The notes: generated from the sequence alone by a model not told the origin. A stretch of 64,000 nucleotides of DNA from Candidatus Kapaibacterium sp. (GCA_028284775.1 JANQRB010000176.1:2922-66921); one strand, 5' to 3'; shown: positions 21,360 through 38,432, counted from the stretch's first letter. A program made the numbers and translations.

Positions 21360-22025
21360 ATGAAAAAGCCGAACAATCCGATCGCAGCCGTCGACATGGG
21401 CATCTTCCGCTTCGATGGTGAAAGACTAAGCGTCTTTCTCGTGGAGTTGCTTCACGGCTCCTTCCGCGGACGACTGGCGCTCCCCGGCGCCCGCCTGGCC
21501 GCCGAAGAAAGCATGGAAGATGCGGCACTCCGCGTGTACCGGGAAGCAGGCGGCGATACGCCATGCTTCATCGAACAGGTTTATACATTCTCAGCTGTCG
21601 ACCGCGATCCGCGCAGCCGCGCGATCGCAACGGCCTATATGGCTTTTCCGCCGGACGGCTGCCCGCCATTTCAGCCTTGCAGTAAGTATGCCCGCGGCGC
21701 CTGGTACGATGTTTTCACGGTCCGGGACCTGGCCTACGATCATGAGCAGATTTCGCGGGTCTGCCGGCAGCGAATTGCCGCCAAGCTGAACTATACGACG
21801 ATTGCGCTGCTCTTGCTGCCGGAGGAATTTACGCTGACGGAAATGCAGACTCTCTATGAACTGTGCAGCGGCGAACAATTCGATAAACGCAACTTTCGCA
21901 AAAAGATCAAATCGATGAACATCATTGTGGAAACCGGTCGTCAACGAAGCGGTCGCAAAGCCCGTCCCGCAATGCTTTATCGCGCCAAACGGCGAAGCAT
22001 GGAGCTCGTTTCGCTCTTCCGCTAA
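21360..22025 (+). CDS. nrtR: NrtR-type Nudix-related transcriptional regulator of NAD metabolism (Nudix domain + C-terminal winged-helix)
   Basis: The N-terminal Nudix-like fold has a degenerate Nudix box (GRLALPGARLAAEESMEDAALRVYREAGG). The C-terminal ~90 aa match the NrtR DNA-binding domain pattern (ISRVCRQRIAAKLNYTTIALLLLPEEFTLTEMQTLYE...). The gene sits directly upstream of nadV, as in described NrtR regulons. Confidence 0.75.
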   Translation: MKKPNNPIAAVDMGIFRFDGERLSVFLVELLHGSFRGRLALPGARLAAEESMEDAALRVYREAGGDTPCFIEQVYTFSAVDRDPRSRAIATAYMAFPPDGCPPFQPCSKYARGAWYDVFTVRDLAYDHEQISRVCRQRIAAKLNYTTIALLLLPEEFTLTEMQTLYELCSGEQFDKRNFRKKIKSMNIIVETGRQRSGRKARPAMLYRAKRRSMELVSLFR

Positions 22026-22044
22026 AAATTTTTTTTGCCTCACT

Positions 22045-22063
22045 TAGTGTATTTTTTACACTT
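22045..22063. promoter_or_regulatory. Second candidate NrtR operator, immediately upstream of nadV: TAGTGT-N7-ACACTt
   Basis: The site is cacTTAGTGTattttttACACTTaaa, ending 3 nt before the annotated nadV ATG (22067). It shares both half-sites and the AT-rich 7-nt spacer with the site at 21331-21349. Confidence 0.5.
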
Positions 22064-22066
22064 AAA

Positions 22067-24070: not shown

Positions 24071-27000
24071 TCACTGAATTCGCTGAAAGCCCGCCACTGA
24101 TCTACGGCCGTCCCTGTGTACAAACTGAATGAAATACATGCCGGGCGCCAGTCCCGCCGTTGAAATGTTAAATTCCCGGGTATCGGTCAGCTCACGTGAA
24201 AAATGGATAGCACCGTGCAGCGACAAGATTCTGGCGACACCGCTGACGTTTTCGTCGAAGCGCAGCCTAAGTTCGCCGGTCGTTGGGTTGGGAAAACTTG
24301 CTATACCAATCGAGGCGCTGCCGTCGGGCGGATTAACAATCCCGGTGCCGATAACAACTGTGACATCGTTTGACGTCAAGACAGGATAGGTGCCGCTGAA
24401 CATCCGTACTTTTGTGTTAAACACTTCGTCCAATGCGCTTCCGGACTTTATCGGCATAGCAAAGACAAACTCCAGTCTGTCATCCGGAACTACACTCTGT
24501 GGTTCGAAACTCGCGCGGGGAATGTTTAATCGATAGTGCCCCCCGGAACGATGTTCGACGAATCGGTCCTGGCGGTTGAAGTCGACAAGTGTCGGTCCCG
24601 CTGTCGAATATGACGTATCATAATCAATCCAGAACTCGAGCCGGCCCTTGTGACGCAGGTGGCCGCGATTGAGAGCTTCCAGGCGGAAATACACGGTGTC
24701 GCCGCCAGTTACGGCTGTCTGGCGGACAGGAGTGCCTTCATCGAGGATGTCGAGTTGTATGTTTCTCTCTTGCAAGGGCCAGGCAAAACATTGCTCCGTC
24801 AGCGGGTCATTTGGCTGGTCGGACTTTGCAAGCAGATCGAAGCAGACTTCATCGCGGCTCGTTTCCGTCGCTATCGCCACTGTAAGGTTTACTGTCCTTT
24901 CCTCCCAGGGCAGCAGGTCTGAAAATTTCTGTAAAATGATCGTCCCGTCCTCTCGTAATTCGCTTGCGCCATAGTCGCTCGATGAAGCGACAATCTCCAT
25001 AGTTGCACCGCCGGCGCTTAGCCAAACAGCACGGAAACGAGCGTCATTGGCACTCAAATTGCGGAATGTCAGTTCAATGCTGAAAAGGCCGGTTTCAATT
25101 AACGGTTCGACGACAAGTTCGGCAGCAGGCCTTGGAGTCGGCGGCGAGGGAATCGGCAATTCGATGTAGGCATTGTGGCCGGCGCTGTCCTCCAGGTCGA
25201 CCCAAAGGGCATTGTCGGCCCGACCGCAGGGCGGCAACCATTGTTGGCTTGCCTGGAGCCGGATTTTGTGTCGATATCCACTCAAGGGAACAGTGGCTTT
25301 GAAGGATCCGTCCGCAGCGGTGACGACGACATTATCGTCTTGCGAGACCACGACGGCTTCATTTGCCACTGCCGGTTCACCCGGATCGCGTATGCAATCG
25401 TTATCGAGGTCTTCGAACACCAGGCCGCGCAGTGTGAAATTTTCAACACTGCCGGGTTCGCAAATTTCGAAGCGCTCGATAATTCCCTCGCCGGATAGCG
25501 TCAGATACCCGTCTCCCTGCGGTGCAAACACCACATCGGTAAAATTTCGACCCAGGGTCGGACATTCCGATACGATCGAGCCTGTCTCCGTATCGAGCAC
25601 GTAAACATTTTTCGTCACTTTGTCCGCAGCCAGCAAATGACGCGAGTCAGGCATGAAGGCCACTTTGAATGCTCTGACATCGAAACGGCGATAGTTGCTT
25701 AGATTGACCTCCGGCCATGCCTGCGTTTCCCATACAGCGATGTAGTCACCCCGCGCAACCGCAAGCAATTGATCGTCAGGCGCAAAGACAGGCAGGACAC
25801 TCTGGTCCTGTTCCGCATCCGAAAGATTAGTGTTAATTTTCTTAAACTCGTCGGAGTTAAATGAGGCCAAACCTTTCTCATCGAATTTTAATCGTCTGTT
25901 GCCGGCATACTGAACGCTTTCAGGGTTGCCCGGACCTGTTTTTTGTGTTAGCAGATAGCCAAAATTACCATAGGCCAGGGCTGCGTTGTGCGCTGTTGCG
26001 AGACTTACCGTAAGGCCGATCTCCGTCGTGCTGAGCACCGACCGACTGTTCGCATCCAGCAAACTAAGCCACCCGACGGGATCAAGATCGTTGCCGCGAA
26101 AGTGGCCGAAGGCAAGCAGTAAAAAACGGCCGTCGCCGGTATAGGCAATCGCCTGCCTATCCACGTGGTCTGCATCGCTGGTCAGAGGGACTTCCTGCTC
26201 AGCGATCATTGCCCCCGAATAGACATCCCAGGTCTGCAAAACTATCACAGCCCGTTTGTGATCAGAGGCCAGGGTTAAACGGCGGCCATCAGCGGTAAAA
26301 TCAAGATTGCTGCCTCGATAGGGCGACAGCTCGATGCGATGACGCACTGTTCCATCGGCCTCGAGAATTCCGACAAGCGCCGCATTATCCGGCGATGTGA
26401 TATTGCTTTTGCGGGCTTTGTAGACGATCGATCCCCCGTCCGGCGCGAAGTCAAGATAGTCGACATGCCTATAGTCTGCCTGCCGCAGCCAACTAGCCCG
26501 GGCAAAATGTTTACTGAAGTCGCCGTCCACTTTCAGGGATTCGTTGTAAAAAGTTCCAGCTTCGGTATATATTTTCAAGGTCACAGTCTTCCGCCCGGCG
26601 GCATTGGCTGTAATACTAAGCGGAAGGTCTATGCAGGATGCCACTGCTAATGACAGGGGAAAAATGTTGTCGGTAAAGCTAAGGGCGGGCATGCCATCGC
26701 CCGGCATAACCTCGATGCCGAAGATCGTCAGGCTGACAGTGTTTGTGGAGCTATTGCATATTCGCAAAGTTTCGTTCAACGGCAGCCCCGGCTCCGCCTG
26801 ATAGATCGGCTCGGCGGGAGAATCATCCTTTAGGCGAAAAATCCTGATCTGTTTTCCCGGGTCGGACAACTCGATGATGGCGCGTTGCGATGGATACCAA
26901 TCCGTATCCACCACAATCTCGACCATGTCATCACTCTTGCGGGGACCATTAAACTGGAACTCGACTGTCTGTGATTGGCCGGATTCCAGGAAGACATCAT

Positions 27001-27643
27001 CATAACTCTCGGGAATGTCTATCGGCGAGAAAGCGCCGCGCGCCGGCCGGATTGCCTTGATGGGCAGGGGTAGCTGACCGGTGTTAATCAGACGAAAAGT
27101 TCCGATTGTCTTTTCGCTCAGATCATCATAGCGAATATCGATCCGATCAATCTTAATACCGGTTTCCCGATACTCGACACTCAGCTTGATCTCCTCGGAA
27201 TGATTTCCCCAACGAGTCCGAAGAAAGGTAAAAGGGCGCCCGAACATGGCTGTCGTCAATTTGAGCGGAATGGTAATGGTATCCGATTGCTCGGTCTGAA
27301 AGGGTGTCTGCGGCGCGCCTGCGGCAAATTCGAATCCCGCCTCGTCGGAAGCAAAACTCAAATCCGAAATCAACAATGGCGTGTGCGTCACCATTCGCAA
27401 ATTCACGATCGTGTCGACGCCCCGCGGCAATGACGGCCGTTCATAGATAAAACTCAGGCTTTGGCTGAGCAGCTGATCCCTGGACTCGTGGGCTTTGCCG
27501 TAGCTTTGCGGCTCAGGAATTTGCGGATATCCATACAGTCCGCTTATTGAACCCGACGACATCAGAGCAATCAAACAGAGTAACTGCCAACGAAACACCG
27601 ACATAGTATTGCCCTGCAAGTTTTTTGTGACTGTCATATTCAT
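24071..27643 (-). CDS. Large secreted multidomain protein (1,190 aa) with T9SS C-terminal sorting domain; beta-propeller-like and CarboxypepD_reg/SdrD-B-like modules
   Basis: The N-terminus has a signal peptide (RWQLLCLIALMSSGSISG). An internal module fits the Cna-B/CarboxypepD_reg pattern (RGLVFEDLDNDCIRDPGEPAVANEAVVV...TAADGSFKA). The C-terminal ~80 aa fit the T9SS CTD pattern (SFPNPTTGELRLRF...GMYFIQF...). Confidence 0.75.
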   Translation of the reverse strand: MNMTVTKNLQGNTMSVFRWQLLCLIALMSSGSISGLYGYPQIPEPQSYGKAHESRDQLLSQSLSFIYERPSLPRGVDTIVNLRMVTHTPLLISDLSFASDEAGFEFAAGAPQTPFQTEQSDTITIPLKLTTAMFGRPFTFLRTRWGNHSEEIKLSVEYRETGIKIDRIDIRYDDLSEKTIGTFRLINTGQLPLPIKAIRPARGAFSPIDIPESYDDVFLESGQSQTVEFQFNGPRKSDDMVEIVVDTDWYPSQRAIIELSDPGKQIRIFRLKDDSPAEPIYQAEPGLPLNETLRICNSSTNTVSLTIFGIEVMPGDGMPALSFTDNIFPLSLAVASCIDLPLSITANAAGRKTVTLKIYTEAGTFYNESLKVDGDFSKHFARASWLRQADYRHVDYLDFAPDGGSIVYKARKSNITSPDNAALVGILEADGTVRHRIELSPYRGSNLDFTADGRRLTLASDHKRAVIVLQTWDVYSGAMIAEQEVPLTSDADHVDRQAIAYTGDGRFLLLAFGHFRGNDLDPVGWLSLLDANSRSVLSTTEIGLTVSLATAHNAALAYGNFGYLLTQKTGPGNPESVQYAGNRRLKFDEKGLASFNSDEFKKINTNLSDAEQDQSVLPVFAPDDQLLAVARGDYIAVWETQAWPEVNLSNYRRFDVRAFKVAFMPDSRHLLAADKVTKNVYVLDTETGSIVSECPTLGRNFTDVVFAPQGDGYLTLSGEGIIERFEICEPGSVENFTLRGLVFEDLDNDCIRDPGEPAVANEAVVVSQDDNVVVTAADGSFKATVPLSGYRHKIRLQASQQWLPPCGRADNALWVDLEDSAGHNAYIELPIPSPPTPRPAAELVVEPLIETGLFSIELTFRNLSANDARFRAVWLSAGGATMEIVASSSDYGASELREDGTIILQKFSDLLPWEERTVNLTVAIATETSRDEVCFDLLAKSDQPNDPLTEQCFAWPLQERNIQLDILDEGTPVRQTAVTGGDTVYFRLEALNRGHLRHKGRLEFWIDYDTSYSTAGPTLVDFNRQDRFVEHRSGGHYRLNIPRASFEPQSVVPDDRLEFVFAMPIKSGSALDEVFNTKVRMFSGTYPVLTSNDVTVVIGTGIVNPPDGSASIGIASFPNPTTGELRLRFDENVSGVARILSLHGAIHFSRELTDTREFNISTAGLAPGMYFIQFVHRDGRRSVAGFQRIQ

Positions 27644-28413
27644 TCGATGTATCAGCCCGATTCCAATATCGCCAAATTGCGGCCAGGCTCGACTACTGTA
27701 TTTCTACAACAGCGTATTTCGAATTCCCGATTGCGGATTTTCTGCTGTCCTGTTTTAGAGTTTGCACAAAAAACCACATTTGGCTTTGAAAATGGAACGA
27801 AAGCATTTTCTGGATAAAGTGAATAGTACACGAGATACGGGGTGCTTTAGTCCTGATACACAATTCTCCATTATCGAAAGGTTATGATGATGTCGAGTCA
27901 AAGGTGGGCAAGACAATAGAGAATAAGGTCGCTGCGGACCTTCTTTTGATCAATATTCCTGCTTTTCCCTGCCTTTGACTCTGCGAATCACAATTAAATC
28001 AGACCAAGAGTACAAGTATTTGTGCCTCTGCGCCAGGGTCAAAGGGTAAGCGCGCCACTTTGTCCTGCAAGCGCTGGAGATATTCGAGTATTCGCAACAG
28101 ATTTGCAATGTCGCGCCAGCTTCCCCTCCAACACTGCTGTGCCAGGAATCTTGCCGCACGAAGAATGGTCAAGTGTAAGGAAACATTCAAAAAACCCTGG
28201 CTAATTCAAAGAAAGTGGCTGTAAGCAAAGGAGAGCAAGTATCCGAAGCTCAGGCAATTCACGCGAAGCTCTAAACAGGCTTACACTAGATTGCTGTTTC
28301 GCGATCGACAGTGTATCATCTCGTAATTTTCGATTTACGGCTGCAGGCAAAAAATGCCAGACCACTCCGAACCAAGGTGTTTATGTACTACGATCGGACC
28401 GGATCCAGGCGCG

Positions 28414-31400
28414 TCAGTCTTTTCCATTCTTCAGCGCGCGTTCGATACCCGCGACTCCTTTGTTAAGCGCGCGCATCTGGCGAACAGCTTCATCGAGGGT
28501 ATCGCCGCTATCTCCGCCGCCGAAAAGCTGATTGTCCCGAAAGGTGGTTTTAATGTGTTCCCAACGCTCTTCTTCCTCCGGACTCAACATCCCATTGATC
28601 GCGCGGAATTTAAGCAGGTTGGCTTCAGCATTACCGGCAAGCGTCTGCGACTCATTGACATAATGACTGAGAACAAGGTTTTTCAGTTCTTCGTCATTCA
28701 TCATCGGCAGTACTTTCTCGGCGATTTTGTTCATGTCGCGATACGAGCCCTGCAAGAGAAAGGGGGGCTCCGTGCGGTAGGCGTCGGCTGTAGCGGCCGA
28801 TTCGATGTACTGTTGGTTTACGCGCAGGATGACGTCACGGACCCATATCAGCTTGCGAACGACATTAACATACTCATTCATATCGGCGGCGGAATGATCA
28901 CCGTAAAATTCGATCCCCTCCCGCCGGTCGGAATCCGCCCACTGGATAAAGGCGTAGAGATCTTCCCGATGGCGGGCGGCAAGGCGACTCAGGCTTACAT
29001 TCGAGGTCATACAGTTTTCCAGATAGCTGAGTTTAAAGGCTTCGCCCTCACCGCTGCCGATATCCCCTAAGTTGTAGGTATCGGCTCGGTTCGCGAGCAT
29101 ATCGGGAATAGTGAACTTTTCGCCGCTTTCGGTATAGGGATTGCCGGCCATAACAACCGCAACCTTGCGACCGCGTAAATCGTGCGTTGTGGATTTTCCC
29201 CGGTACACGCCTTCAATTTTACGCTGCGCATCGCAGAGCGAGATAAACTTCTGGAGAAATTCCGGATGACAATGTTGAATGTCATCCACATATATCATGA
29301 CGTTGTCGCCCATTTCAAAAGCCAGGTTGAGCTTTTCCATTTCTTCGCGCGCAGCGGCGTTCGGGGCTTCGCCAGGGTCGAGCGATGTAACGCGATGGCC
29401 GATGGCAGGTCCGTTAATTTTCATGAAGAAAAGACCCAGACGATTGGCTACATATTCCATCAGGGTCGTTTTGCCATAGCCGGGCGGTGATATAAGAAGC
29501 AACAGGCCCATTCGGTCGGTGCGCGTCTCGACGCCGGCCTGCCCCATTTGTTTGGCGAGGTTATCGCCTATCAAGGGCAAATAAACACGGTCGATCAGAC
29601 GATTGCGAACAAATGATGTCAGAACCCGCGGCATAAACTCGCTCAGACGCATTTCTTCACGTGTTTTGTCAGCCAATTCCTTTTTGCCCTGGCTGAATGT
29701 GCGGAACAGGGGTACGACCTCCCTGCAATAATAACTAAGTCTTTGAATGAATTCATTGTAGTCAAGCCTGTACACGCTCTTTGTGATATGCTGATGAACA
29801 CCGTTCATTCCGCTGATTGTTCGTCGGACGGAAATGTCGATCAGGTTTTCGTTAGCCAGCTCGTGCTTGTTAAATATCATTGATGCCGCCTCGTCCAGAT
29901 AGCGTTCTCTGAACTCGTCATTGCCGGTGGTCAGGAAAGCCCGAAGCCAGCTCCGCACTACCTGGTAGCGTCCGATCGCATCGCCGCCGATGCGGTCGAG
30001 AGCTCCGTTGAAGGCGGCAATAAAGTTGTTGGCGTACAGATGATCGGTGAATGCCTGCAGGAGTGCGGCAGCCTCGGGAGCGATGGCAAATCCATTCCCG
30101 CGCGTCAACTCATAAAACAGGTATTCTCCCGCTTCCTCTGTAGTCGACTCGGCGAACAAGGAACTACTTACTGCAAACTCATGCAGCAATTGCTGCAGAT
30201 CCTTCACATAGGTCCGATGGGTACGGGCTGAAGGAAAGAGCTTTAACATTTCACCGATACCGTTGAGACGTCCGGCCAAAAGGTCGCGTTGCTCGCCGTC
30301 GATGAAATTTTGCCAGTAGACGATGGCGCAGGCGCGTGCCGTCGACGAATAGCGCAGTAAACCGATGCGATGATGGAGATCAAGAAGGGCTTTCAACAGG
30401 AGTGCGGCATCACTATCATGCACGCCCTTGATGTATCCTTCGTCATAGCGGCCGGCACAGAATTGCCGTACATAATCCGCAAGCTTGTCAGCCGGAGCAT
30501 CCCGCAACGCTTCGGCTTCCCTGCCATCACCGGCGGTCACTTGCCGAAGAATCGTGTAGGCCAGAAATTCGCCACGATAAACATCATCATTTTCCGACGG
30601 AAGCTGTTGCTGCCAGACAGGGCGTGTCGCCATGAACGAGGCATCCTCGACTTCACGAAAATACTTCGTACCAGTGAGATGATAAAACATCGAATCATCG
30701 CGTCTGACGATTGTCACGTCTAAAACTTCGGTATTAACCGAAAAGTTGTGTTTGCCGAGCCGAATGACATTGCTGCCGTCTACAAACAATTCGGAACGAT
30801 CCTTAAGCTGACGCAGCGCTTCTTCCTTGGCAGTCTTCAGGCGGGTCTGCACGTCATCGGCCTTAACACTATCGCCAATTTCATTGAGCGAATCGATAAT
30901 ATCCCGAACCTTTTCAATCATGAGATCCGCCGCGAAATAGGAGCTGATCTCTTCAGCGCTGGTCATAGTGTCGGAGCGTTTGCTTACACCCGTCAGGATG
31001 CGCTCGGCCGATGCCAATAATGCCAGCGAACGACGATTGCGCGCTTCCACCAGCGCCAGTTTTTTCGATTCAAAGGCATTGTAGACTTCTTCCCGCTTTT
31101 CCACCAGGATTGCTGCGAATTCATCAAATTCCGTAAAACGCGCTTCCAGCTCTTCAAGCTGCACCATCAGCTTCGTCAGGAATTCATCGCAGCGGGCAGG
31201 TGTATCGCACAAGTCGAGATAGTTAATTAAGCCCTGGCTCACCAGTTTGATTTGAGCGGCGAATTCGGCGCGGCCCTCCGCCTCCGCCAGCTGCTGTTTC
31301 CGCCCTCGCAACTGCGCACGAACCTGATTGAGCTTTGCAAAATTGGCAGAGATGTTGTCGATTATCAGCGTTGTTTTACTACTGTCTCCGATTTTGAGGT

Positions 31401-33333
31401 TGCTGACAATTTCGATTAACAACTCCAGATCACCGGCAACAGCGTCGATCGCTGCTTCACATTCAAGTGCGGCTCTCACCTTTTCAAGATCGGCAACAGC
31501 GCTTTCGATTCCATCGACGCGCTCCTTATATGATTGAAGAGCATCCTCCCGCATCAGAAAGTCGATACACTGCGCGGAGAGTTCGTCAGTTTTGCTTTTC
31601 ACTCTTTCATCGAGACCGACAACCAGATCGGTATCAACATAGCGTAGTTCCTGCAAGGCGATAAGCGTCCCTCGGAGCGTTCGCAGAGCCGCCAGGTATT
31701 CCACGAATTCGCGCAGCTCATTCAATGAAGCGAGGCGAATGGCTTTCAAAAGTTCTTCGGTCCTGCCGGCGGCGGCGGCAACCTGCCGGCTTGTATCCTT
31801 CTTAACTGCCTGCACTTTCTCAAATTCGTCAACCGCAGAGCTTGCCGCGGACCTGATGGATGCCAGCGCCAACCCGAGGTTGTGCGCCCGGTCGTCGTTT
31901 ATCCAGAAAAATGTGTCGAGAATATCGCCGCTGCGCTTGACAATGTCCAGGTAGAGATTCGCGTAATTGTCTTCCTTCTGCAGCAAGGAATACAACTCAT
32001 GGCATTCGGCCATACAGCGAACGACATCTTTGTTGCCGAGTTGATAGAGATAACTGTCTTCATGGACCGTCATCTTGAAGTTGGGGCCGACATATGGAGT
32101 TTGCCAGATCTGTAAAACATGATGCTTCTGCGGTTCTAGTTCGGCCTTGAAGTACAGCAGCTTTCCATCTTCGAACAATGAAAATCCATTGCAGATGATG
32201 GGTGTCTGTACGCGCTGCTCGATGAGGTTGTACGACAGCAGAACATACACGCCGGCATCACGATTATAAAAGATGAAAAGGATATCTTCGCCGTTCGGCG
32301 CCGGAATTCGCCGTTCGAAGACCATTTCGTTCAGATTCGTCTCAAAAGCAAAGTATTCACCGGTCGCCAGATAATAGCCCTTGGGAAAGATAAATCCGTG
32401 CCCTTCCGGCAATAGTATTGTCGCTTCATCCAGGGCATCGATGCGCAAAGCGCTGCCCGTCTTTTCATTAAACAACACATACCGGAAGTCTTGCTCGCGA
32501 TAGGGTCGGATTCGTAAGATAATGATATGGCCAAGCAGAGCATACTGAAGTTCAAGATCATCGAGTTGCTGTTCCCGCTCTTGTACCGCTTCAGCGTATA
32601 TGCCTTCGCCCGTATCGGTATTGTCTTCGATTTTCAGAACGAGCTGCCCCTTTTGCAGTCCGACAAACAGGCGGTCGGCAATCGCGATATGCGGAAATTC
32701 GCCTTCGCGCTGCAGGTCACGGCTGCTACGGATCCAGTCGAACTCATGCTGTGGCGGATAACGCAGTTCGTGATCGCTGCGATTGTCGACATACTCGAGC
32801 CTATGATCCCCGTGCATCAACCACTTAAACACCTTGAAATCGTCAATGCTCTTGCCGACGCGGAACTTCATGTACAGATAAGGGCTGCGAAAGGCAAACT
32901 TGACAAAATGGGTCTGCTTATAGTACTTGTACAATCCTTTGAAGTCACGCTTGAAGTTGTCGTCTTGGATGAGCGACGCAGTGATCGGTTTGAAATGATC
33001 ACCGTCAAAACTATAGACTGACAATACATCTTCGACTGTTGTTTCGGATTTGAGGCCGATATGGACATTGTAGCCGAAGATAAAATCTTCGCCGACAGAC
33101 ACCATATCGCGCGGCACGCAATTGTTCACCGTTGTGACGCGTTCGCTGCTTAACAATCCGGTGGCGATGGAGCCGAATACTTCTTTGCGCTCTTTGTTTA
33201 ACAGGTTGAGACGCTGAAGCAAGTCCTTGGCTGCTTTTAGCAGACGTTCGCGAATAAGCTCATAACTGCCGCCGTCGAGCCCCTGGTTGCTTGAATCAGT
33301 TTTATCTTCTGTTGAAAGTGGACTTTCCGCCAT
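28414..33333 (-). CDS. Giant (1,639 aa) AAA+ ATPase of the AAA_5 (dynein/MoxR/McrB-related) type with ~1,200-aa non-catalytic N-terminal region; function unknown
   Basis: A single AAA_5-like module lies near residues ~1230-1400. It has Walker A (LLISPPGYGKTTLMEY), Walker B (MIYVDDIQH), sensor-1 (VAVVMAGNPYTES) and an arginine-finger region (RADTYNL). The N-terminal region is long and mixes coiled-coil and aromatic-rich beta segments. I recognise no nuclease, helicase or peptidase motif. The gene lies 333 bp downstream of the flotillin gene on the same strand. Confidence 0.7.
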   Translation of the reverse strand: MAESPLSTEDKTDSSNQGLDGGSYELIRERLLKAAKDLLQRLNLLNKERKEVFGSIATGLLSSERVTTVNNCVPRDMVSVGEDFIFGYNVHIGLKSETTVEDVLSVYSFDGDHFKPITASLIQDDNFKRDFKGLYKYYKQTHFVKFAFRSPYLYMKFRVGKSIDDFKVFKWLMHGDHRLEYVDNRSDHELRYPPQHEFDWIRSSRDLQREGEFPHIAIADRLFVGLQKGQLVLKIEDNTDTGEGIYAEAVQEREQQLDDLELQYALLGHIIILRIRPYREQDFRYVLFNEKTGSALRIDALDEATILLPEGHGFIFPKGYYLATGEYFAFETNLNEMVFERRIPAPNGEDILFIFYNRDAGVYVLLSYNLIEQRVQTPIICNGFSLFEDGKLLYFKAELEPQKHHVLQIWQTPYVGPNFKMTVHEDSYLYQLGNKDVVRCMAECHELYSLLQKEDNYANLYLDIVKRSGDILDTFFWINDDRAHNLGLALASIRSAASSAVDEFEKVQAVKKDTSRQVAAAAGRTEELLKAIRLASLNELREFVEYLAALRTLRGTLIALQELRYVDTDLVVGLDERVKSKTDELSAQCIDFLMREDALQSYKERVDGIESAVADLEKVRAALECEAAIDAVAGDLELLIEIVSNLKIGDSSKTTLIIDNISANFAKLNQVRAQLRGRKQQLAEAEGRAEFAAQIKLVSQGLINYLDLCDTPARCDEFLTKLMVQLEELEARFTEFDEFAAILVEKREEVYNAFESKKLALVEARNRRSLALLASAERILTGVSKRSDTMTSAEEISSYFAADLMIEKVRDIIDSLNEIGDSVKADDVQTRLKTAKEEALRQLKDRSELFVDGSNVIRLGKHNFSVNTEVLDVTIVRRDDSMFYHLTGTKYFREVEDASFMATRPVWQQQLPSENDDVYRGEFLAYTILRQVTAGDGREAEALRDAPADKLADYVRQFCAGRYDEGYIKGVHDSDAALLLKALLDLHHRIGLLRYSSTARACAIVYWQNFIDGEQRDLLAGRLNGIGEMLKLFPSARTHRTYVKDLQQLLHEFAVSSSLFAESTTEEAGEYLFYELTRGNGFAIAPEAAALLQAFTDHLYANNFIAAFNGALDRIGGDAIGRYQVVRSWLRAFLTTGNDEFRERYLDEAASMIFNKHELANENLIDISVRRTISGMNGVHQHITKSVYRLDYNEFIQRLSYYCREVVPLFRTFSQGKKELADKTREEMRLSEFMPRVLTSFVRNRLIDRVYLPLIGDNLAKQMGQAGVETRTDRMGLLLLISPPGYGKTTLMEYVANRLGLFFMKINGPAIGHRVTSLDPGEAPNAAAREEMEKLNLAFEMGDNVMIYVDDIQHCHPEFLQKFISLCDAQRKIEGVYRGKSTTHDLRGRKVAVVMAGNPYTESGEKFTIPDMLANRADTYNLGDIGSGEGEAFKLSYLENCMTSNVSLSRLAARHREDLYAFIQWADSDRREGIEFYGDHSAADMNEYVNVVRKLIWVRDVILRVNQQYIESAATADAYRTEPPFLLQGSYRDMNKIAEKVLPMMNDEELKNLVLSHYVNESQTLAGNAEANLLKFRAINGMLSPEEEERWEHIKTTFRDNQLFGGGDSGDTLDEAVRQMRALNKGVAGIERALKNGKD

Positions 33334-33516
33334 ACATGCCTCGGTGTTCTGAAATCAATTTTTCTTACCAGAGTCTCTGGCCCATACTTCACGTACTTTG
33401 TACGCGAGCGTGAGAATGCAGCAGCCCGCCTCAAGCCGAAAAAAAATTGTATACGCATCACTGTTGCAATGAAGCTGTGTCGCTTGCATTTGACACTCCG
33501 AGTACTTGGGCAACAA

Positions 33517-33544
33517 GTCTCTCTCTCCAGATTGAGAGAGAGAG
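33517..33544. other. Perfect 11-bp alternating CT/GA hairpin between the flotillin and giant-ATPase genes
   Basis: The sequence is GTCTCTCTCTC-cagatt-GAGAGAGAGAC. It is palindromic, so it forms on either strand. It lies 123 nt 3' of the flotillin stop and about 185 nt 5' of the ATPase start. Confidence 0.5.
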
Positions 33545-33666
33545 ACCGCTACGGTCGGATCAGACTATTCTCATTGGCCAGATCACTGAACAGACTAAAC
33601 ACAGGACCGGTAAAAGTGGACTTGTCTCGGAATGCGGATGCTGTCCCGGGCAGACCTGGCAAGGGG

Positions 33667-35904
33667 CTACTTAAGAATGGACGCCGCCGGTGCATCCGCC
33701 ATACCGCTATCCTGAATCAGACCGTGAAGTTTTTGCAGGACGCCGCGGGTGTCTTCATCCGCCATCGTCATCAGCTTAATCATCAGGGCCGAGATACTGA
33801 GGTTTTTAACATCGTCCGAGCTGAGTCCGAATCTGGCTACAAAGCTCTTGAGCTTGGCCGCAAAGTCCTCGGGACCGCCACCATCGAAGAAAGCGCTTTT
33901 CACATCGCTGAGCACCGTGCTATTGTTTACAAGTCTGTCGACGGATTTACCCTTAGTGATCGAGTTAACTATCTGATCGAAGAACATCGTATCGCCGCCG
34001 ACGATGTCGATCTTTGCGGTTTTGAGCCCTTCCCTGATAATGTCGGCCTGAGCTTCGGCAATATCTTTCTGGATCGTAATCTGCGCCAGTTCGATCTTCT
34101 TTTCTTTTTCAAGACGGAGCTTGAATTCTTCGTGTTCTTTGCCAACGCCATCGAGTCGCTTCATCGCTTCAGCTTTTTCCTCGATACCCTGCGCTTCGGC
34201 GCTGTATTTTTTGTGCATGACACTGGCCTGCGCCATTCCTTCTTTTTCCAGTGCGACTGCTTTGGCCTCCTGACCTTTAGCTTCAGCAAAGGCTTTTTGC
34301 TCCATGACCTGGGCTTCGGCCTCACCTTGCCTGGCCAAGGCTGCAGCGTGCGCTTTCACACCTTCCGCTTCAGCCGCAGCCTTTTTGGCGAGCACCGCTG
34401 CTTCGGCGGCGCCCTGCTGCTCCGTCGCTTCCGCGTGCGCCTTCACACCCTTGGCTTCGGCAAATGCTTTCATTTCGATAACCTGAGCATCGGCGGCACC
34501 TTGTTTCTCGATTGCCAGCGCTTTGGCCTCCAGCACCCGCGCTTCCGACAAGCCCAGCGTCGCTTCTTCCACAGCGCGAGCATCGGCAATCGTCTTCATT
34601 GCCTCGGCCTTTTTCTCCGCCGTCGCCCTGTCGGCATCTGCCTCGATAATTTTCTGTTCGGCCTCTTGCTTGGCGGCATCTTTGCCGGCTTCGGCAGCGG
34701 TTACTTCCTTTATTTTCAGCTTCAGCGCATCCTGTTCGGCCTGTGTTAATGCCACGAGCTTTTCGCGATCGGCGCCGGCGCGTGCGCGCGTGTCTTTAAT
34801 CTTTTCTTCTTCTTCAACCACCGCCTTTTCAACGATGACGCGCTCGCGTATCACTTCCTGAATATTGCGACGTTCTTCCTCCACGGCACGCTCTTTTTCG
34901 ATGGTGGCCAGATCGACAATCTTCTCTTTCTCAGTTAACTCAAGCAAACGATCTTTATCGACCCGCTGGGTTTCTACGGCATCGGTGCGTTCTTTGCTGC
35001 GTTGGGCAATGATGATCTGCCGCTGCTTGTTCTGCTCCGACACCTGAATTTCTTCTTCGGTCTGGATTCGGGACTGCTCCACTTTCAGTTTTTCTTCATA
35101 TTGTACTCGCTCGGCTTCCGACTGTTCACGAGCAGTAATCGTAGCGACTTCCTTGGCTTGTTTCTGCTCGGTTTCCGCGAGCTGCCGCTCCATCTCTAGT
35201 ATCTTTTCGCGCGCCTCAACATCCTGCTGAGTAATGATCTTTTCTTTGTTGCGTTCGATTTCATTTTTAAGGATCGCCTCGCGGGCAGTGATTTCCGTAA
35301 TCTTTTTAATTCCCTCGGCATCAAAAATGTTGCTGGCAATCATATTCGTCAATGGCGTCTGTTCGAGATGATCGATTGCCGCATCCTCCAGCACATAACC
35401 ATTGAGATCGGTGCCGATAGTATTCAGTATTTCCTGCTTGAATCGGTCGCGAGAGTCGTACAGCTCTTCGAAGTCGAATCGTTTACCGATTGTTTTAAGC
35501 GCTTCCGAAAACTTCGCATCGAATAATTCGATAAGGGCTTCCTGCTGCGAGGCACGCGCGCAGCCCAGCGACTCCGCTACCTTGAGAACGTTGTCCGCTG
35601 TTTTATTAACACGTACGAAAAACGCCACCTTTATATCGGCACGGAGATTGTCCTTGCAAATCAGGCCGGCCTGCCCCAGCCGTTCAATCTCGATGCGTTT
35701 CAGCGATATGTCCATCAACTCCGCCCGGTGAACTACCGGCACAACAAACATCCCGGCGAAATCGACTTTCGTCCCCCCCATCCCGTTGCGGACAAGCGCT
35801 TTCCCCTGCTCAACTTTTTTGTACATTTTCACGATCCAGGCAATAGCCCCGGCTACAATAAATGCTACAACAGCGATTGCTACATACGATACGGATTCGA
35901 GCAC
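33667..35904 (-). CDS. Flotillin-family SPFH (band 7) protein, YqiK/FloT-like, with extended coiled-coil
   Basis: The N-terminus has a TM helix (VAIAVVAFIVAGAIAWIV). The SPFH domain is present (…GKALVRNGMGGTKVDF…VVPVVHRAELMDISLKRIEIER…). A long Ala/Glu-rich coiled-coil carries flotillin-type repeats (AEAEGVKAHAEA…). Confidence 0.85.
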   Translation of the reverse strand: MLESVSYVAIAVVAFIVAGAIAWIVKMYKKVEQGKALVRNGMGGTKVDFAGMFVVPVVHRAELMDISLKRIEIERLGQAGLICKDNLRADIKVAFFVRVNKTADNVLKVAESLGCARASQQEALIELFDAKFSEALKTIGKRFDFEELYDSRDRFKQEILNTIGTDLNGYVLEDAAIDHLEQTPLTNMIASNIFDAEGIKKITEITAREAILKNEIERNKEKIITQQDVEAREKILEMERQLAETEQKQAKEVATITAREQSEAERVQYEEKLKVEQSRIQTEEEIQVSEQNKQRQIIIAQRSKERTDAVETQRVDKDRLLELTEKEKIVDLATIEKERAVEEERRNIQEVIRERVIVEKAVVEEEEKIKDTRARAGADREKLVALTQAEQDALKLKIKEVTAAEAGKDAAKQEAEQKIIEADADRATAEKKAEAMKTIADARAVEEATLGLSEARVLEAKALAIEKQGAADAQVIEMKAFAEAKGVKAHAEATEQQGAAEAAVLAKKAAAEAEGVKAHAAALARQGEAEAQVMEQKAFAEAKGQEAKAVALEKEGMAQASVMHKKYSAEAQGIEEKAEAMKRLDGVGKEHEEFKLRLEKEKKIELAQITIQKDIAEAQADIIREGLKTAKIDIVGGDTMFFDQIVNSITKGKSVDRLVNNSTVLSDVKSAFFDGGGPEDFAAKLKSFVARFGLSSDDVKNLSISALMIKLMTMADEDTRGVLQKLHGLIQDSGMADAPAASILK

Positions 35905-36379
35905 TGCATACTCCTTCTTCTATTAACAAGAGTTTTATGGTTATCTGTTTATGTATTATTGACTTTACTATTACCCTGTCTTTCCGGTTTACTGCTAGTC
36001 CAGTATTCCTGAGAAAGAAGCATTGCGTCAATGGGTTTAATATCCCCTTCTCTACGAAGCGCTAAAATGCTCCGATCGCGAGAGCTGTTTTCACTGACTC
36101 TCAGAGAACAAGAATCGGCGCTTCCCGTCATTCCGCTCCGTGTCTGCCCCGGAGAAGAATGACGGTCGGCGAACTGAGGTCAATGGATGAAGCCGCGTTA
36201 ACTCCACCATCGACCGTATTGCAACAGCAGGAATGGCTCTGTTACAAGTTCTGTGTTTGCTCCGGAGGCGGTGCACTGTGCAACCGCAGGCTCTGCGGCG
36301 TACAATTCAGCTTCCGAAAGTTATTTGAGTTTAGTCGGATAAGGGCCGTCTCTCGATAGGGTCGCGCGGCCAGACGCGC

Positions 36380-37066
36380 TTAGCTTTCAAATGGCTGTAT
36401 GTAATACAGGTTTTCAGTTTCGTTGAACTCGACCACGACAGCCTGCTGCCCCTTATTGATAGGTCGGCCGCCGAAAGTCTTGGCATTCAGCAATAGCGGC
36501 GCTCCGGACGTCGGCACCTCGATTTGTCCCAGACGATTTGATTCGACGCTGGTAATGGCAATGCCGACTTTGCCGACAATGACCCGGCGCTCGCGCTCTT
36601 CCTTCTGCATCGACGCAAACATTTTTTTCAGCGGCGCGGTTATCAACTTTGTCGCCAGAAGACTTATGCCAAAGTTGGGCAGGAAGACGAGTAATGCGGT
36701 CCAGCCGGAGTCAGCGGCATTGAAATAGTGATTACCCAGAACCGATCCAACCCAGAGAAAAAGGGCGAAAAAAGAGATGACAATCATGAACGGCACCGTG
36801 CCGAGATTGACAAATGCCAGCAGCGATTGCACCCAACCGAGTTCCGTTCCGCCATCAATGTCGGCACCCGCATCAACATCCGCGTCAAGATTGACATCGG
36901 CGGAAACATCGACATCCGTGTCGAGGTCGGCATCCAAATCAAAGTCCAGGAAGCTGATGTCCAGGGCTCCGAACATCACGATGCTCCAGTAAAGCAGCAC
37001 CAGCAAAAGCAAAAGAGTAAAAGGTAGGTTGAGTATTGAAAAAGAAACCTGTATCAATTCAGCCAT
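36380..37066 (-). CDS. NfeD-like / YqiJ-family membrane protein (flotillin operon partner, OB-fold C-terminus)
   Basis: Two N-terminal TM helices are followed by an acidic D-x-D repeat stretch (DLDADLDTDVDVSADVNLDADVDAGADID). More TM segments follow. The C-terminus is a beta-rich ~70 aa (GKVGIAITSV...GQIEVPTSGAPLLLNAKTF). It sits directly upstream of the flotillin gene in the classic yqiJ-yqiK arrangement. Confidence 0.6.
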   Translation of the reverse strand: MAELIQVSFSILNLPFTLLLLLVLLYWSIVMFGALDISFLDFDLDADLDTDVDVSADVNLDADVDAGADIDGGTELGWVQSLLAFVNLGTVPFMIVISFFALFLWVGSVLGNHYFNAADSGWTALLVFLPNFGISLLATKLITAPLKKMFASMQKEERERRVIVGKVGIAITSVESNRLGQIEVPTSGAPLLLNAKTFGGRPINKGQQAVVVEFNETENLYYIQPFES

Positions 37067-37406: not shown

Positions 37407-38432
37407 CTAACTCAACAGATAAATCAAAACGCCGAGAGCGGCCAGCCAGAGATTGGTTATGTTGCTCACAATAATATTGAGCAAGGCCGCTTTCGGCATG
37501 TCCTGACGCAGCATTGACAGTGTCGATTTGAATTCGGGCCAGGACGTTAAAGTTGACAAAATGAGAAAACCGATAATGCCCTTGGGTGCGCGAGATGCTT
37601 CGGATGTATATGTCACCATAAAATCAAGCAGAAATCCCGTCAAAATTAATGTCAGCATAGCCGGTAGAAACCAGACACGGGATATTGCCAGTTCGACATC
37701 TTCATCTTCACCTTCGTCATCAGGCCGGGTGATAAACAGGTAGACCGTTATAGCGACAACGAGTACGACCCAATAAAAATAGAGCGCTTCTTCGATGAGG
37801 TAAAATGAGAGTGCCAGGCTGATGGTTATGACAAATACGCACAGTCGGTATATGATATTGAGGCCCCAAACATCCTTCATCCGCCGGGCAAGCATACTTG
37901 CGGCCAGCAGCAGCAGGACATTCATGAGATTGGAGCCCAGCGGCGTAGAAGACGCAAAAATAATATCATTGCTTAACAGACCAATTACCAATACCAGCAA
38001 TTCCGGGCCGTTGGTCAAAAAGCCAACGATCGTGCCGATACCCCGTACGTTGCGCAATGTCGCAATGAGAATTTCAACCGACGTGCCGACCAGATACATC
38101 GCAAGCACAATACCGCAGGCGCCGAGAAAGGCCTGTTCCGCCTGACCGCCGTTTATGAACGCCGTAATGACGAAAAACGGCAGCACGACAGCCCAAACGA
38201 CCAGGTCAATTTTCGAAACCGATTCGCGAAGAAAAGCGCCTAATTCGTTCACAGTATTATCTATTAATCGTACTTTTGTCGGGGGCGAAACCGGGCCAAA
38301 AAAGCGATACCGACCAGCGGAAAGTGACGCAACGGCCCTGAAATTTAATCGAAAGGCAGCCATTGTTGATGAGCAGCCAAGCCAGCCGCAACGCTGACGC
38401 CGTCCGGCAGCATCGCGGTGTATAACGCGCAA
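37407..38432 (-). CDS. CaCA-family (Na+/Ca2+ exchanger-like) membrane transporter; start codon uncertain
   Basis: Two internal repeats carry alpha-repeat-like motifs (TNGPELLVLV / GSNLMNVLLLL and TSWPEFKSTLSML / SNITNLWLAALG). The protein is polytopic. The first ~25 codons of the tracked ORF are Arg-rich and probably not translated, so the likely start is a downstream Met. Confidence 0.55.
   Translation of the reverse strand: MRVIHRDAAGRRQRCGWLGCSSTMAAFRLNFRAVASLSAGRYRFFGPVSPPTKVRLIDNTVNELGAFLRESVSKIDLVVWAVVLPFFVITAFINGGQAEQAFLGACGIVLAMYLVGTSVEILIATLRNVRGIGTIVGFLTNGPELLVLVIGLLSNDIIFASSTPLGSNLMNVLLLLAASMLARRMKDVWGLNIIYRLCVFVITISLALSFYLIEEALYFYWVVLVVAITVYLFITRPDDEGEDEDVELAISRVWFLPAMLTLILTGFLLDFMVTYTSEASRAPKGIIGFLILSTLTSWPEFKSTLSMLRQDMPKAALLNIIVSNITNLWLAALGVLIYLLS

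Follow-up and report, generated by a model that had tools for sequence, protein, structure and literature searches.

The window analysed here, a stretch of 64,000 nucleotides from Candidatus Kapaibacterium sp., carries a chromosomal copy of a widespread and ancient three-gene module, and the module is a real, conserved operon. Along the minus strand it encodes a YqiJ/NfeD-like transmembrane protein (36380-37066, 228 aa), a flotillin (33667-35904, 745 aa) and a giant AAA+ ATPase (28414-33333, 1,639 aa), in that order. We lean towards the view that the module uses ATP to remodel flotillin/PspA assemblies beneath the membrane and is, on that view, a membrane-maintenance or envelope-stress machine. 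All three open reading frames, which had been claimed on one strand by an earlier note on this DNA, were confirmed by translation; the flotillin gene starts with GTG, with GGAG 8 nt upstream.

The linkage of flotillin and ATPase genes is conserved over at least 10 phyla, and in both search directions. Starting from the ATPase, a flotillin gene lay directly upstream in 60/64 genomic loci, on the same strand in 59, and an nfeD-like gene was present in 53/61; starting from the flotillin, the ATPase gene followed downstream in 39/41 metagenomic loci, and an nfeD-like gene was found upstream in 61/67. The neighbourhood check suggested in the earlier note thus shows a linkage extending beyond this genome, and because it holds across at least 10 phyla in both directions, the coupling of the giant ATPase to flotillin and NfeD is meaningful. 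The trio was found in Proteus mirabilis; on Pseudomonas pQBR103 the order was an unannotated yqiJ-like ORF, the SPFH gene and the ATPase gene, and in Streptomyces a small unassigned ORF preceded flotillin and ATPase. The most divergent ATPase clade still has flotillin directly upstream, preceded by a gene for a 210-aa protein with no similarity to the YqiJ-like protein. Planctomycetota and Verrucomicrobiota have many members of the ATPase family, Bacteroidota have it equally often, and it is found in Proteus, Streptomyces and Deinococcus as well. When neighbours were clustered, the only recurrent families were flotillin, nfeD, PspA, CesT-like and S24 repressor.

The ATPase tree groups by phylum, the flanking genes are ordinary chromosomal or housekeeping genes, and the ATPase was present in 13/72,556 plasmid records, most of which were megaplasmids, chromids or mislabelled chromosomes. 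No phage homologue of the module was found, nor any tRNA, integrase or flanking repeats at the locus. These observations speak against the island-like character attributed to the locus earlier. In PADLOC-DB 2.0 the ATPase gave only a chance-level match (0.038, to mad8), and the flotillin and the YqiJ-like protein gave none; the suggested defence machine finds no backing in these results or among phage genomes, and a secretion-associated machine draws no support from them, from the tree or from the flanks.

Genes for CesT_Tir_1 (4e-54) and PspA_IM30 (4e-41) proteins lay just upstream of the module in 17/80 loci, all from Bacteroidota and all with a divergent HTH+S24 repressor gene; the window ATPase is 47-53% identical, over its full length, to the ATPases of these loci. 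On pQBR103 the module forms a fusion with an operon of the PspA-rhomboid-YjfKLM type, LemA and TPM genes adjoin it in Proteus, and TelA does so in the divergent clade. Queries with PspA, CesT-like and S24-repressor proteins by tblastn gave nothing in the 64-kb window, which carries an abbreviated form of the module, without adjacent pspA, cesT-like or repressor genes. The coupling had been thought not assignable to any described system, but the same neighbourhood appears in section 19 and Table S3 of Ravi et al. (mSystems 2024, PMC11237479), with or without CesT/Tir-PspA: a YqiJ/YuaF transmembrane protein, then a Band-7+coiled-coil+flotillin protein, then an ATPase with an N-terminal beta-propeller, a coiled coil and a C-terminal AAA+ domain. 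The example given is Dokdonia donghaensis ANH61663.1, abbreviated operons without PspA are reported as widespread, and an inference of membrane stress was drawn there independently. The window shares with that module the same three core genes, their order and their domain architectures, and the 17 Bacteroidota loci, compared by gene arrangement, reproduce the paper's full form with its divergent HTH+protease gene. The neighbourhood is thus already published from comparative genomics, and the coupling itself is not new. That paper is without structure, AAA+ clade, linkage statistics or experiment; the present work adds the structural class, the linkage statistics and tractable hosts, namely Proteus mirabilis, P. 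fluorescens pQBR103, Streptomyces and Hymenobacter. A literature search found no physical interaction, ATPase activity or phenotype for any module member, and searches on DUF3686/PF12458, YqiJ, and flotillin with MoxR or DNA repair ATPase returned nothing relevant beyond PMC11237479. The P. aeruginosa bac cluster (PMC10948618) was considered as a model and rejected, being the other, CesT(DUF2170)-PspA type of operon; that paper mentions neither an ATPase nor PA3728.

The non-coding gap between the yqiJ-like and flotillin genes (35905-36379, minus strand) is, at 475 bp, unusually long; in the gene maps of most related loci hardly any space separates the two genes. It contained only weak sigma-70-like matches and had no match in Rfam. 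Flotillin and ATPase genes are separated by 333 bp (33334-33666, minus strand), a spacing that elsewhere ranges over 32-2382 bp across related loci. In several Bacteroidota loci this gap is occupied by inserted genes, which were rejected as system components, being mutually unrelated. Promoter- and terminator-like sites at the locus occurred at chance level only. Long plus-strand ORFs within the flotillin gene (e.g., 33469-34749) were dismissed as antisense products of the Ala/Glu-rich repeats; at five related loci (cluster c9) the antisense ORF exceeds the real flotillin gene in length. The AT-rich non-coding DNA of about 770 bp noted earlier after the ATPase gene is real: the 770 bp between the ATPase stop codon and the next gene (27644-28413, no strand assigned) have a GC content of 0.458 versus 0.545 for the window, within the lowest 0.3% of 770-bp windows. 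Neither an Rfam match nor a tRNA was found in the region, and its RNA fold was not significant (z-score -0.74); it is simply intergenic DNA ahead of the next minus-strand gene. That gene (24071-27643) carries a T9SS sorting domain, Por_Secre_tail. Within the window, a defence-type SIR2+TPR gene is situated 9 kb away.

The YqiJ-like protein comprises a first transmembrane segment, an acidic repeat, two or three additional hydrophobic helices and a soluble domain at the C-terminus. The repeat, of (hydrophobic-Asp)n or D-x-D type, spans residues ~40-72 (LDFDLDADLDTDVDVSADVNLDADVDAGADID); an alignment of orthologues showed it to be conserved and variable in length, and E. coli YqiJ and the copies of Proteus and Pseudomonas have a short version. 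The earlier identification of the gene as YqiJ-like is judged correct; E. coli YqiJ is collinear with the protein over the full length (22% identity, E=8e-4). Pfam YqiJ_N matched with E=5e-4 and 20.6 bits, below the curated cut-off of 23, and was found in 16/31 orthologues, at best with 3.6e-8. The soluble domain (residues ~160-228) is putatively of the NfeD/YuaF OB-fold type, judging from its sequence; the top PDB match to residues 163-216 was YuaF 2k14, which was not significant (E=0.6-0.9), and Pfam NfeD matched one of the 31 orthologues. That a C-terminal domain of NfeD type partners an SPFH protein is established.

The flotillin is of the SPFH2/YqiK type. A hydrophobic N-terminal membrane anchor (residues 6-26) is followed by the SPFH domain (about residues 30-180), by a long Ala/Glu-rich coiled-coil region with repeats of ~22 residues (~230-600), and by a conserved C-terminal domain. 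The full-length protein had no match in Pfam; searched with the N-terminal 250 aa, Band_7 matched at 2.1e-12. E. coli YqiK is 30% identical over 469 aa (E=4e-45), an alignment reaching into the coiled coil, and the two results bear out the earlier description as an SPFH/flotillin protein with a long coiled coil. Orthologues adjoining giant-ATPase genes are 47-59% identical to it. Sequence searches of the PDB with the flotillin and with the YqiJ-like protein gave nothing significant.

The giant ATPase belongs to the family DUF3686 (PF12458) / DUF7902 (PF25472), which carries the NCBI product name 'DNA repair ATPase', with scores of 575.9 bits (cut-off 25, E=6e-173) and 82.8 bits (cut-off 26), respectively. 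The earlier note had raised the possibility of an already characterised family; the protein is indeed catalogued, in families that are not themselves characterised. Its homologues number over 4,300, the best 120 of them showing 51-55% identity at 99-100% coverage. No other member exceeds 55% identity to the window protein, which forms its own branch in the tree. The ATPase is under strong constraint: full-length identity between phyla is ~50%, and the architecture is uniform (1,600-1,900 aa) even at 29% identity. Two AF2 models had pLDDT values of 85.4 and 85.9. Neither in the translation nor in these models was a transmembrane segment noted, and the protein is predicted to be cytosolic/soluble.

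About 1,230 residues precede the AAA+ module, in agreement with the ~1,200 counted earlier; they had been called uncharacterised, and the AF2 models resolve them into a propeller, rods and a helical domain. By AF2 secondary structure, an N-terminal helix (residues 21-53) leads into a beta-propeller of ~27 strands (59-411), which is covered by the Pfam DUF3686 match (residues 37-476; 31906-33225, minus strand). Spectrin-repeat-like helical rods and coiled coil follow (428-849; 30787-32052, minus strand), with DUF7902 inside this region (597-680; 31294-31545, minus strand), and then a small beta domain (856-895) and an all-helical domain (together 856-1230; 29644-30768, minus strand), for which Pfam had no match at E<=1. 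Beyond the AAA+ module come a helical lid and C-terminal domain (1441-1639; 28417-29013, minus strand), including the invariant block RTEPPFxLQGSYRxMN at residues 1520-1535. Foldseek matched the propeller to IFT-A, Elp1, prolyl oligopeptidase, the clathrin terminal domain and Vps18 (E about 1e-5, probability up to 1.0), with very low TM-scores (0.07-0.17) and high rmsd; matches of the propeller and rod folds to solved structures are weak and generic. NCBIfam gave P-loop-level matches only, and a PDB sequence search with a 12-sequence ATPase profile gave matches limited to the p97 and RuvB P-loops.

The single AAA+ module is of the MoxR/dynein/midasin (AAA_5) class and occupies residues 1268-1440 (29014-29532, minus strand). 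AAA_5 scored 25.6 bits on the isolated region (cut-off 22; profile positions 2-126 of 139) and 20.5 bits, just under the cut-off, on the full-length protein. Among AAA+ clades, the fold comes closest to MoxR, dynein or midasin, with the MoxR chaperones CbbQ and NorQ as its nearest structural relatives, and the original AAA_5 assignment therefore stands. Walker A is GYGKT (1285-1289), a beta-hairpin precedes sensor 1 (N1398), and R1416 is present; Walker A, sensor 1 and the Arg residues are invariant across homologues. The typical MoxR Walker B motif is DEINR. Here Walker B reads IYVDD-IQH, with D1350 and D1351 ('DDIQH') invariant in 68 sequences and canonical hhhhDE absent; because the catalytic Glu is invariantly Asp, fast ATP hydrolysis is not assured. 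No canonical aromatic pore loop is visible in the module, which makes a threading unfoldase doubtful. ATPases of the MoxR class usually act with a VWA partner; Pfam detected no VWA/MIDAS domain in the three proteins, and no recurrent VWA partner occurred among the clustered neighbours.

SPFH cages are known to pair with AAA+ or protease partners, as in HflK/C-FtsH, prohibitin with the m-AAA protease, and stomatin with the NfeD protease. In a remodelling module, the flotillin would oligomerise at the inner membrane, on its cytoplasmic side, as a cage or microdomain, with the YqiJ-like protein as its membrane partner, presumably in contact through the C-terminal NfeD-type domain. The giant ATPase, probably a ring with long N-terminal arms, would dock on this scaffold via propeller and rods, and would use ATP to build up, take apart or remodel the flotillin lattice or its clients; PspA/ESCRT-III-type polymers may be further targets where pspA is encoded alongside. 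By analogy, the module might be likened to Vps4 acting on ESCRT-III, or to FtsH within the HflK/C cage. Several points count against a remodeller: the flotillins of E. coli and B. subtilis function with no ATPase of this kind; the window is without pspA, cesT-like and S24 repressor genes, and a VWA partner is absent; Walker B is DD, the aromatic pore loop is missing, and the propeller and rod fold matches are weak. A bolder version, offered tentatively, makes the giant ATPase the missing energy-consuming partner of flotillin, a hexameric motor of MoxR/dynein class whose six propeller-on-spectrin-like-rod arms hold on to the flotillin cage, and to any PspA polymers present, driving cycles of assembly and disassembly or membrane repair. 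If true, bacteria would possess an equivalent of Vps4/ESCRT-III, or of a coat that carries its own uncoating ATPase, and one using a combination of folds without a solved relative.

With CbbQ and NorQ nearest in structure, a client-specific chaperone has to be weighed, in which a MoxR-like ATPase (as CbbQ, NorQ and RavA) matures, inserts or extracts one membrane protein or complex, and flotillin and YqiJ merely concentrate the client without the scaffold itself being remodelled. The propeller and rods resemble substrate or adaptor arms, and in the HflK/C-FtsH precedent it is the clients, and not the cage, that undergo quality control. The linked genes include no conserved candidate for a client, however, and flotillin and nfeD alone recur; a VWA/MIDAS adaptor is absent, and the recurrent PspA link points to polymer or membrane remodelling. 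We regard such a chaperone as rather unlikely. It is improbable that the module is a membrane-coat-like machine, in which a lattice of propellers and helical rods bends or buds flotillin-marked membrane and the AAA+ ring is the assembly or uncoating motor. For the N-terminal half, Foldseek's nearest matches were indeed coat and tether proteins made of a propeller plus helices (IFT-A, clathrin terminal domain plus linker, COPI alpha/beta', Vps18 and a nucleoporin), and Planctomycetota and Verrucomicrobiota are rich in the family, but given TM-scores of 0.07-0.17 and high rmsd the propeller fold alone is truly shared, and the helical part is coiled-coil/spectrin-like and not an alpha-solenoid. 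Moreover, the family is just as common in Bacteroidota and is found in Proteus, Streptomyces and Deinococcus, for which internal membranes are not known.

An anti-phage or conflict system, that is, an abortive-infection or membrane-targeting defence module on a genomic island, would be expected to evolve fast and to be patchy, unlike the very high conservation and phylum-grouped tree seen here. None of the three proteins had a PADLOC match, phage homologues, integrase, tRNA and flanking repeats were all absent, the neighbours are housekeeping genes, and the recurrent partners are envelope-stress genes. What speaks for it are the AT-rich 770-bp gap downstream, the variable Bacteroidota inserts between flotillin and ATPase, including a DUF559-like endonuclease and an IS200-like gene, the SIR2+TPR gene 9 kb off and a few copies on megaplasmids, and it appears quite improbable. 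Least credible is a DNA repair ATPase, as in the Pfam and NCBI product names, for which the chances seem very slight. It has the inherited name ('ATPase involved in DNA repair', PF12458) and a weak RuvB similarity around Walker A, but the latter is confined to the P-loop, and the former is without support in the literature searched. No nuclease, helicase or DNA-binding domain was found in the giant ATPase by Pfam, NCBIfam, PDB sequence or fold search, and its invariant neighbours encode membrane proteins, not repair genes. The name, carried by thousands of database entries, is probably misleading.

The module bears on the role, build-up and turnover of bacterial flotillin assemblies, most work on which has been done in E. 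coli and B. subtilis, both without the giant ATPase. Its ATPase, nearly always encoded immediately after one flotillin subfamily and with recurrent links to envelope-stress genes of PspA type, is a testable candidate for the motor of these assemblies.

Among known systems, E. coli yqiJ-yqiK and B. subtilis yuaF-floT are operons of a short NfeD protein and an SPFH2 flotillin (PMC2636767). The E. coli pair, named in the earlier note as a known operon, is homologous to the window genes and in the same order (YqiK 30%, YqiJ 22% and collinear). In E. coli K-12, no ATPase gene follows yqiJ-yqiK, and sibD/ibsD and hldE are found there instead. The window flotillin is ~190 residues longer than YqiK, in the Ala/Glu repeat region, and the long acidic D-x-D insertion of its YqiJ-like partner is missing from E. 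coli YqiJ. The MoxR-class ATPases (CbbQ, NorQ, RavA) and the dynein/midasin modules are ~13% identical to the window AAA+ module; MoxR proteins are about 300 aa, whereas the window module follows its propeller, rods and helical domain, and MoxR systems have a VWA/MIDAS partner, which this one does not. With HflK/C-FtsH and prohibitin/m-AAA the common logic is an SPFH scaffold paired with an AAA+ protein at the membrane, the window pairing being known from genes; FtsH is a membrane-anchored AAA+ protease of the classical clade, whereas the window ATPase is soluble, of MoxR class and without a protease domain. The likeness to ESCRT-III/Vps4, and to PspA with AAA+ ATPases, lies in a membrane-bound polymer with a dedicated AAA+ remodeller, and PspA, a member of the ESCRT-III superfamily, is encoded in the same operon as the module at those 17/80 loci and on pQBR103.

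Three large minus-strand ORFs were found at exactly the positions claimed in the earlier note, and their translations gave a 228-aa YqiJ/NfeD-like protein (36380-37066), a 745-aa flotillin with a GTG start (33667-35904) and a 1,639-aa giant AAA+ ATPase (28414-33333). The YqiJ-like protein has a hydrophobic N-terminus followed by LDFDLDADLDTDVDVSADVNLDADVDAGADID, more hydrophobic helices and a soluble C-terminus, in keeping with its description as a membrane protein with an acidic D-x-D repeat. Beyond its N-terminal anchor and SPFH domain, the flotillin has an Ala/Glu-rich region of great length, which agrees with the proposed SPFH protein carrying a long coiled-coil; the full-length sequence returned no Pfam matches, and residues 1-250 scanned alone matched Band_7 (2.1e-12), supporting the SPFH part. 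The yqiJ-yqiK genes are indeed annotated as a pair in E. coli K-12, and the window proteins are homologous to both members, the flotillin sharing 30% identity with YqiK over 469 aa (E=4e-45) and the YqiJ-like protein 22% identity with YqiJ, to which it is collinear (E=8e-4).

The acidic repeat (alternating hydrophobic-Asp, after TM1, residues ~40-72) was retained in an alignment of YqiJ-like orthologues (A4), at lengths of about 10 to 40 residues; the Proteus and Pseudomonas versions are short, and E. coli YqiJ has almost none of it. Judged from sequence, the repeat may bind cations. Directly upstream of the yqiJ-like gene, on the same strand, is a CaCA-type Na+/Ca2+ exchanger gene (37407-38432), an arrangement seen in the window only. 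The yqiJ-like and flotillin genes are separated by a 475-bp non-coding gap (35905-36379) that measures <100 bp in most orthologous loci; no recognisable element was found within it; an internal promoter may lie there. Antisense to the flotillin gene is a 426-aa ORF (33469-34749, plus strand), which was rejected as a real gene, being an artefact of the Ala/Glu-rich repeat region; the region 34000-35000 has a strong AT skew of -0.4. At five related loci such an antisense ORF exceeds the true flotillin gene in length, and could mislead gene callers.

The giant ATPase is not an orphan with a single AAA_5 domain as its sole recognisable module, since Pfam also matched DUF3686 ('ATPase involved in DNA repair'; residues 37-476, E=6e-173) and DUF7902 (residues 597-680, E=2e-23), the third domain being AAA. 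The AAA_5 assignment itself held, because the AAA region scored alone gave 25.6 bits (profile positions 2-126 of 139) against a gathering score of 22 bits. In a search of 5.8 billion proteins, 8,000 candidates were scored and more than 4,300 of them were homologues, the best 120 of which showed 99-100% query coverage and 51-55% identity and came from Bacteroidota, Planctomycetota, Verrucomicrobiota, Desulfobacterota, Acidobacteriota and others. When the N-terminal 480 residues were run with HMMER against all of 1.84 billion cluster representatives, 697 matched, the complete members of which were nearly all about 1,500-2,000 aa (most 1,600-1,900), down to 29% identity. The Pfam architecture was unchanged in the most divergent clade, and an alignment spread over 12 phyla had a mean column identity of 58% with dense invariant blocks. 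Two homologues of about 1,040 aa each (P0311 and P0312, one of them on an 8.9-Mb contig) carry DUF3686 and DUF7902 and lack the AAA domain; each may be a variant that naturally lacks the ATPase, or the product of a split gene.

Two AlphaFold2 models built on a 68-sequence alignment were confident (mean pLDDT 85.4 and 85.9). They place a helix at residues 21-53, a beta domain of about 27 strands at 59-411, long helices (maximum 58 residues) at 428-849, a small beta domain at 856-895, an all-helical domain at about 920-1155 and one AAA+ module at about 1268-1440, followed by a helical region to the C-terminus. Fold comparison of the AAA+ module gave the highest values for the MoxR proteins CbbQ (17.8) and NorQ (16.5), then dynein (15.3), midasin (14.0), ClpA/ClpB (12.5-13.0), McrB (about 12) and the classical AAA proteins Vps4, p97 and spastin (about 11-12). 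The Walker A motif is GYGKT (residues 1285-1289), and its Lys/Thr, sensor-1 N1398 and R1416 are invariant among homologues, so that ATP binding is very likely. The Walker B of MoxR proteins is usually DEINR; here an Asp-Asp pair ('IYVDDIQH', residues 1345-1354) was invariant in 68 homologues from many phyla and the catalytic Asp-Glu was absent, which suggests slow or regulated hydrolysis. No aromatic pore-loop motif was seen in the conservation analysis.

Linkage of the ATPase to flotillin and NfeD beyond this genome was maintained when examined from either direction. With the ATPase alignment as query, a scan of 185,579 species, each represented by a single genome, gave at least 597 confirmed loci, of which 80 were kept with 10-kb flanks, and tblastn with the three window proteins found a colinear trio in most of these. 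Flotillin lay directly upstream of the ATPase in 60 of the 64 loci whose upstream sequence reached at least 3 kb (same strand in 59), and a yqiJ-like gene was detectable in 53 of 61 with at least 4.2 kb. The reverse scan, from flotillin across metagenome contigs, gave 80 loci (47-57% identity), with the ATPase downstream on the same strand in 39/41 loci having at least 3.5 kb of downstream sequence and a yqiJ-like gene upstream in 61/67. Outside the main phyla (ATPase identity 37-41%) the module occurs in Proteus mirabilis, where the order is yqiJ-like, flotillin, ATPase and LemA and TPM genes lie alongside in divergent orientation, on the P. fluorescens megaplasmid pQBR103, and in Streptomyces, Deinococcus, Halomonas and Vibrio. 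Even the most divergent ATPase clade keeps flotillin as its immediate upstream neighbour (32% identity, E=1e-59), with a TelA gene on the downstream side.

The flotillin-ATPase gap holds unrelated inserted genes in many Bacteroidota loci and a single Desulfobacterota locus (L004, L019, L024, L026, L028, L029, L036-L038, L041, L052, L057 and L072 among the loci compared), where it measures up to 2.4 kb. Among the insertions are genes for lipoproteins, small membrane proteins and a DUF559-like endonuclease (three loci), as are an IS200-like gene and TA-like genes, and the gap resembles a hot spot for insertion within a conserved operon. At two loci an additional SPFH-only paralogue of 183 aa, 23-31% identical to the N-terminus of the flotillin, sits between the yqiJ-like and flotillin genes (L006, 6948-7499, plus strand; L060, 8254-8805, minus strand).

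A neighbour-joining tree of 77 ATPases separated Bacteroidota, Planctomycetota, Verrucomicrobiota and Desulfobacterota into distinct groups, and identity within phyla (53-57%, or 68% among four Desulfobacterota) was barely above that between phyla (48-55%), which together indicate a gene that is ancient, has passed down mostly by vertical inheritance and is under strong constraint. The window ATPase formed its own long branch outside Bacteroidota, although genes near the trio (24071-27643 and 42530-45760) carry T9SS C-terminal sorting domains, which point to a host of the FCB group. As no database protein is more than 55% identical to it, the source lineage is poorly sampled.

Only three other families recurred when the ORFs of all 80 loci were clustered; Pfam identified them as PspA_IM30 (E=4e-41; 17 loci), CesT_Tir_1 (E=4e-54; 13 loci) and a divergent HTH_3+Peptidase_S24 repressor (15 loci), all in Bacteroidota and directly ahead of the yqiJ-like gene. 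On pQBR103 the module is appended to a different operon (L081, 1-4110, plus strand), of PspA, rhomboid, DUF2491, DUF350, DUF1190 and glutathionylspermidine-synthase-like (GspS-like) genes. Membrane-stress genes also flank the trio in distant lineages, namely LemA+TPM_phosphatase in Proteus (L083, 2678-4458, minus strand) and TelA in the divergent clade (L085, 11989-13227, plus strand). None of the PspA, CesT-like or S24 repressor genes occurs in the 64-kb window, and the window locus is therefore the abbreviated form.

What the analysis shows is the identity of the three gene products and their domains, the AAA+ class, a very strong synteny in both directions and a repeated link to PspA and envelope-stress genes. 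SPFH cages (HflK/C-FtsH, stomatin-NfeD, flotillin domes), NfeD C-terminal domains and MoxR/AAA+ remodellers are established precedents, and from these we infer a mechanism in which flotillin would form a cage or microdomain on the cytoplasmic face with YqiJ as its membrane partner, the ATPase would oligomerise via its AAA+ module with the propeller and rod arms reaching the scaffold, and ATP would be spent, in membrane maintenance or under stress, on remodelling assemblies of flotillin and/or PspA, or the clients of these. This specific scheme is tentative, with a little under an even chance of being right. An unlikely alternative is a MoxR-type chaperone dedicated to a particular client, for which flotillin would be no more than a platform; the MoxR proteins CbbQ and NorQ are the nearest folds. 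A coat-like assembly shaping the membrane is improbable. Named homologues among the best 120 carry 'DNA repair ATPase' or 'MoxR-like ATPase', yet searches of Pfam, NCBIfam and PDB sequences found no nuclease, helicase or DNA-binding module anywhere in the giant protein; no basis for the 'DNA repair' name was found, a repair function is barely credible, and the product name is a probable misannotation to correct.

A defence machine on an island-like locus, as the earlier note suggested, is very improbable. The AT-rich non-coding DNA after the ATPase gene is real (770 bp, 27644-28413; GC 0.458 vs 0.545 for the window, in the lowest 0.3% of 770-bp windows), but it simply precedes the next minus-strand gene (24071-27643, for a T9SS-sorted protein) and is probably a long promoter or 5' region of that gene, and no Rfam family, tRNA or significant, stable fold was found in it. 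PADLOC gave no matches for any of the three proteins, no phage-encoded relatives were found, and relatives occurred on only 13 of 72,556 plasmid records, mostly megaplasmids or chromids. The flanking genes are ordinary (Na+/Ca2+ exchanger, ECF sigma/anti-sigma pair, OmpA-like, NAMPT/NrtR, Na+/H+ antiporter, tail-specific protease, GMC oxidoreductases). Elsewhere in the window, a 753-aa SIR2_2 + TPR protein (17291-19552, plus strand) matched the PADLOC models Aga_SIR2 (pAgo-associated SIR2; E=3e-39) and PDC-S65 (E=6.5e-25), so that its gene is a candidate for stand-alone defence by NAD depletion; about 2 kb from it are the NAD-salvage genes NrtR and NAMPT (21360-23737). A separate, ordinary MoxR operon (46892-50537, minus strand), with DUF58 (46892-48226), AAA_3 MoxR (48226-49206; E=6e-64) and DUF4350 (49206-50537) genes, is unrelated to the giant ATPase and of the same AAA+ class.

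The reading in the earlier note is thus partly right: the coupling of the three genes is real, conserved and functionally uncharacterised, and what falls away is its novelty along with its island-like character. The E. coli K-12 locus differs from the window trio in that the ATPase is absent. The neighbourhood thought to fit no described system was already published by Ravi et al. (mSystems 2024; preprint 2020; PMC11237479), who described an operon joining CesT/Tir-PspA with three further genes, reported that abbreviated operons with only the last three genes are widespread, and inferred a role in dynamics beneath the membrane, the same as inferred here. No experimental study of the trio was found in the literature, and the trio is an amenable entry point into what bacterial flotillins do. 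The association is not a new discovery, as both that operon and an entry in their Table S3 match the loci found here: the Dokdonia donghaensis arrangement (<-cHTH+Protease, CesT_Tir -> YqiJ-YuaF -> Band-7+coiled-coil+flotillin -> beta-propeller+coiled-coil+AAA-ATPase) is identical to that of 17 Bacteroidota loci. The window locus very probably belongs to this published conserved trio, and is a divergent member of a known, experimentally untouched kind of system.
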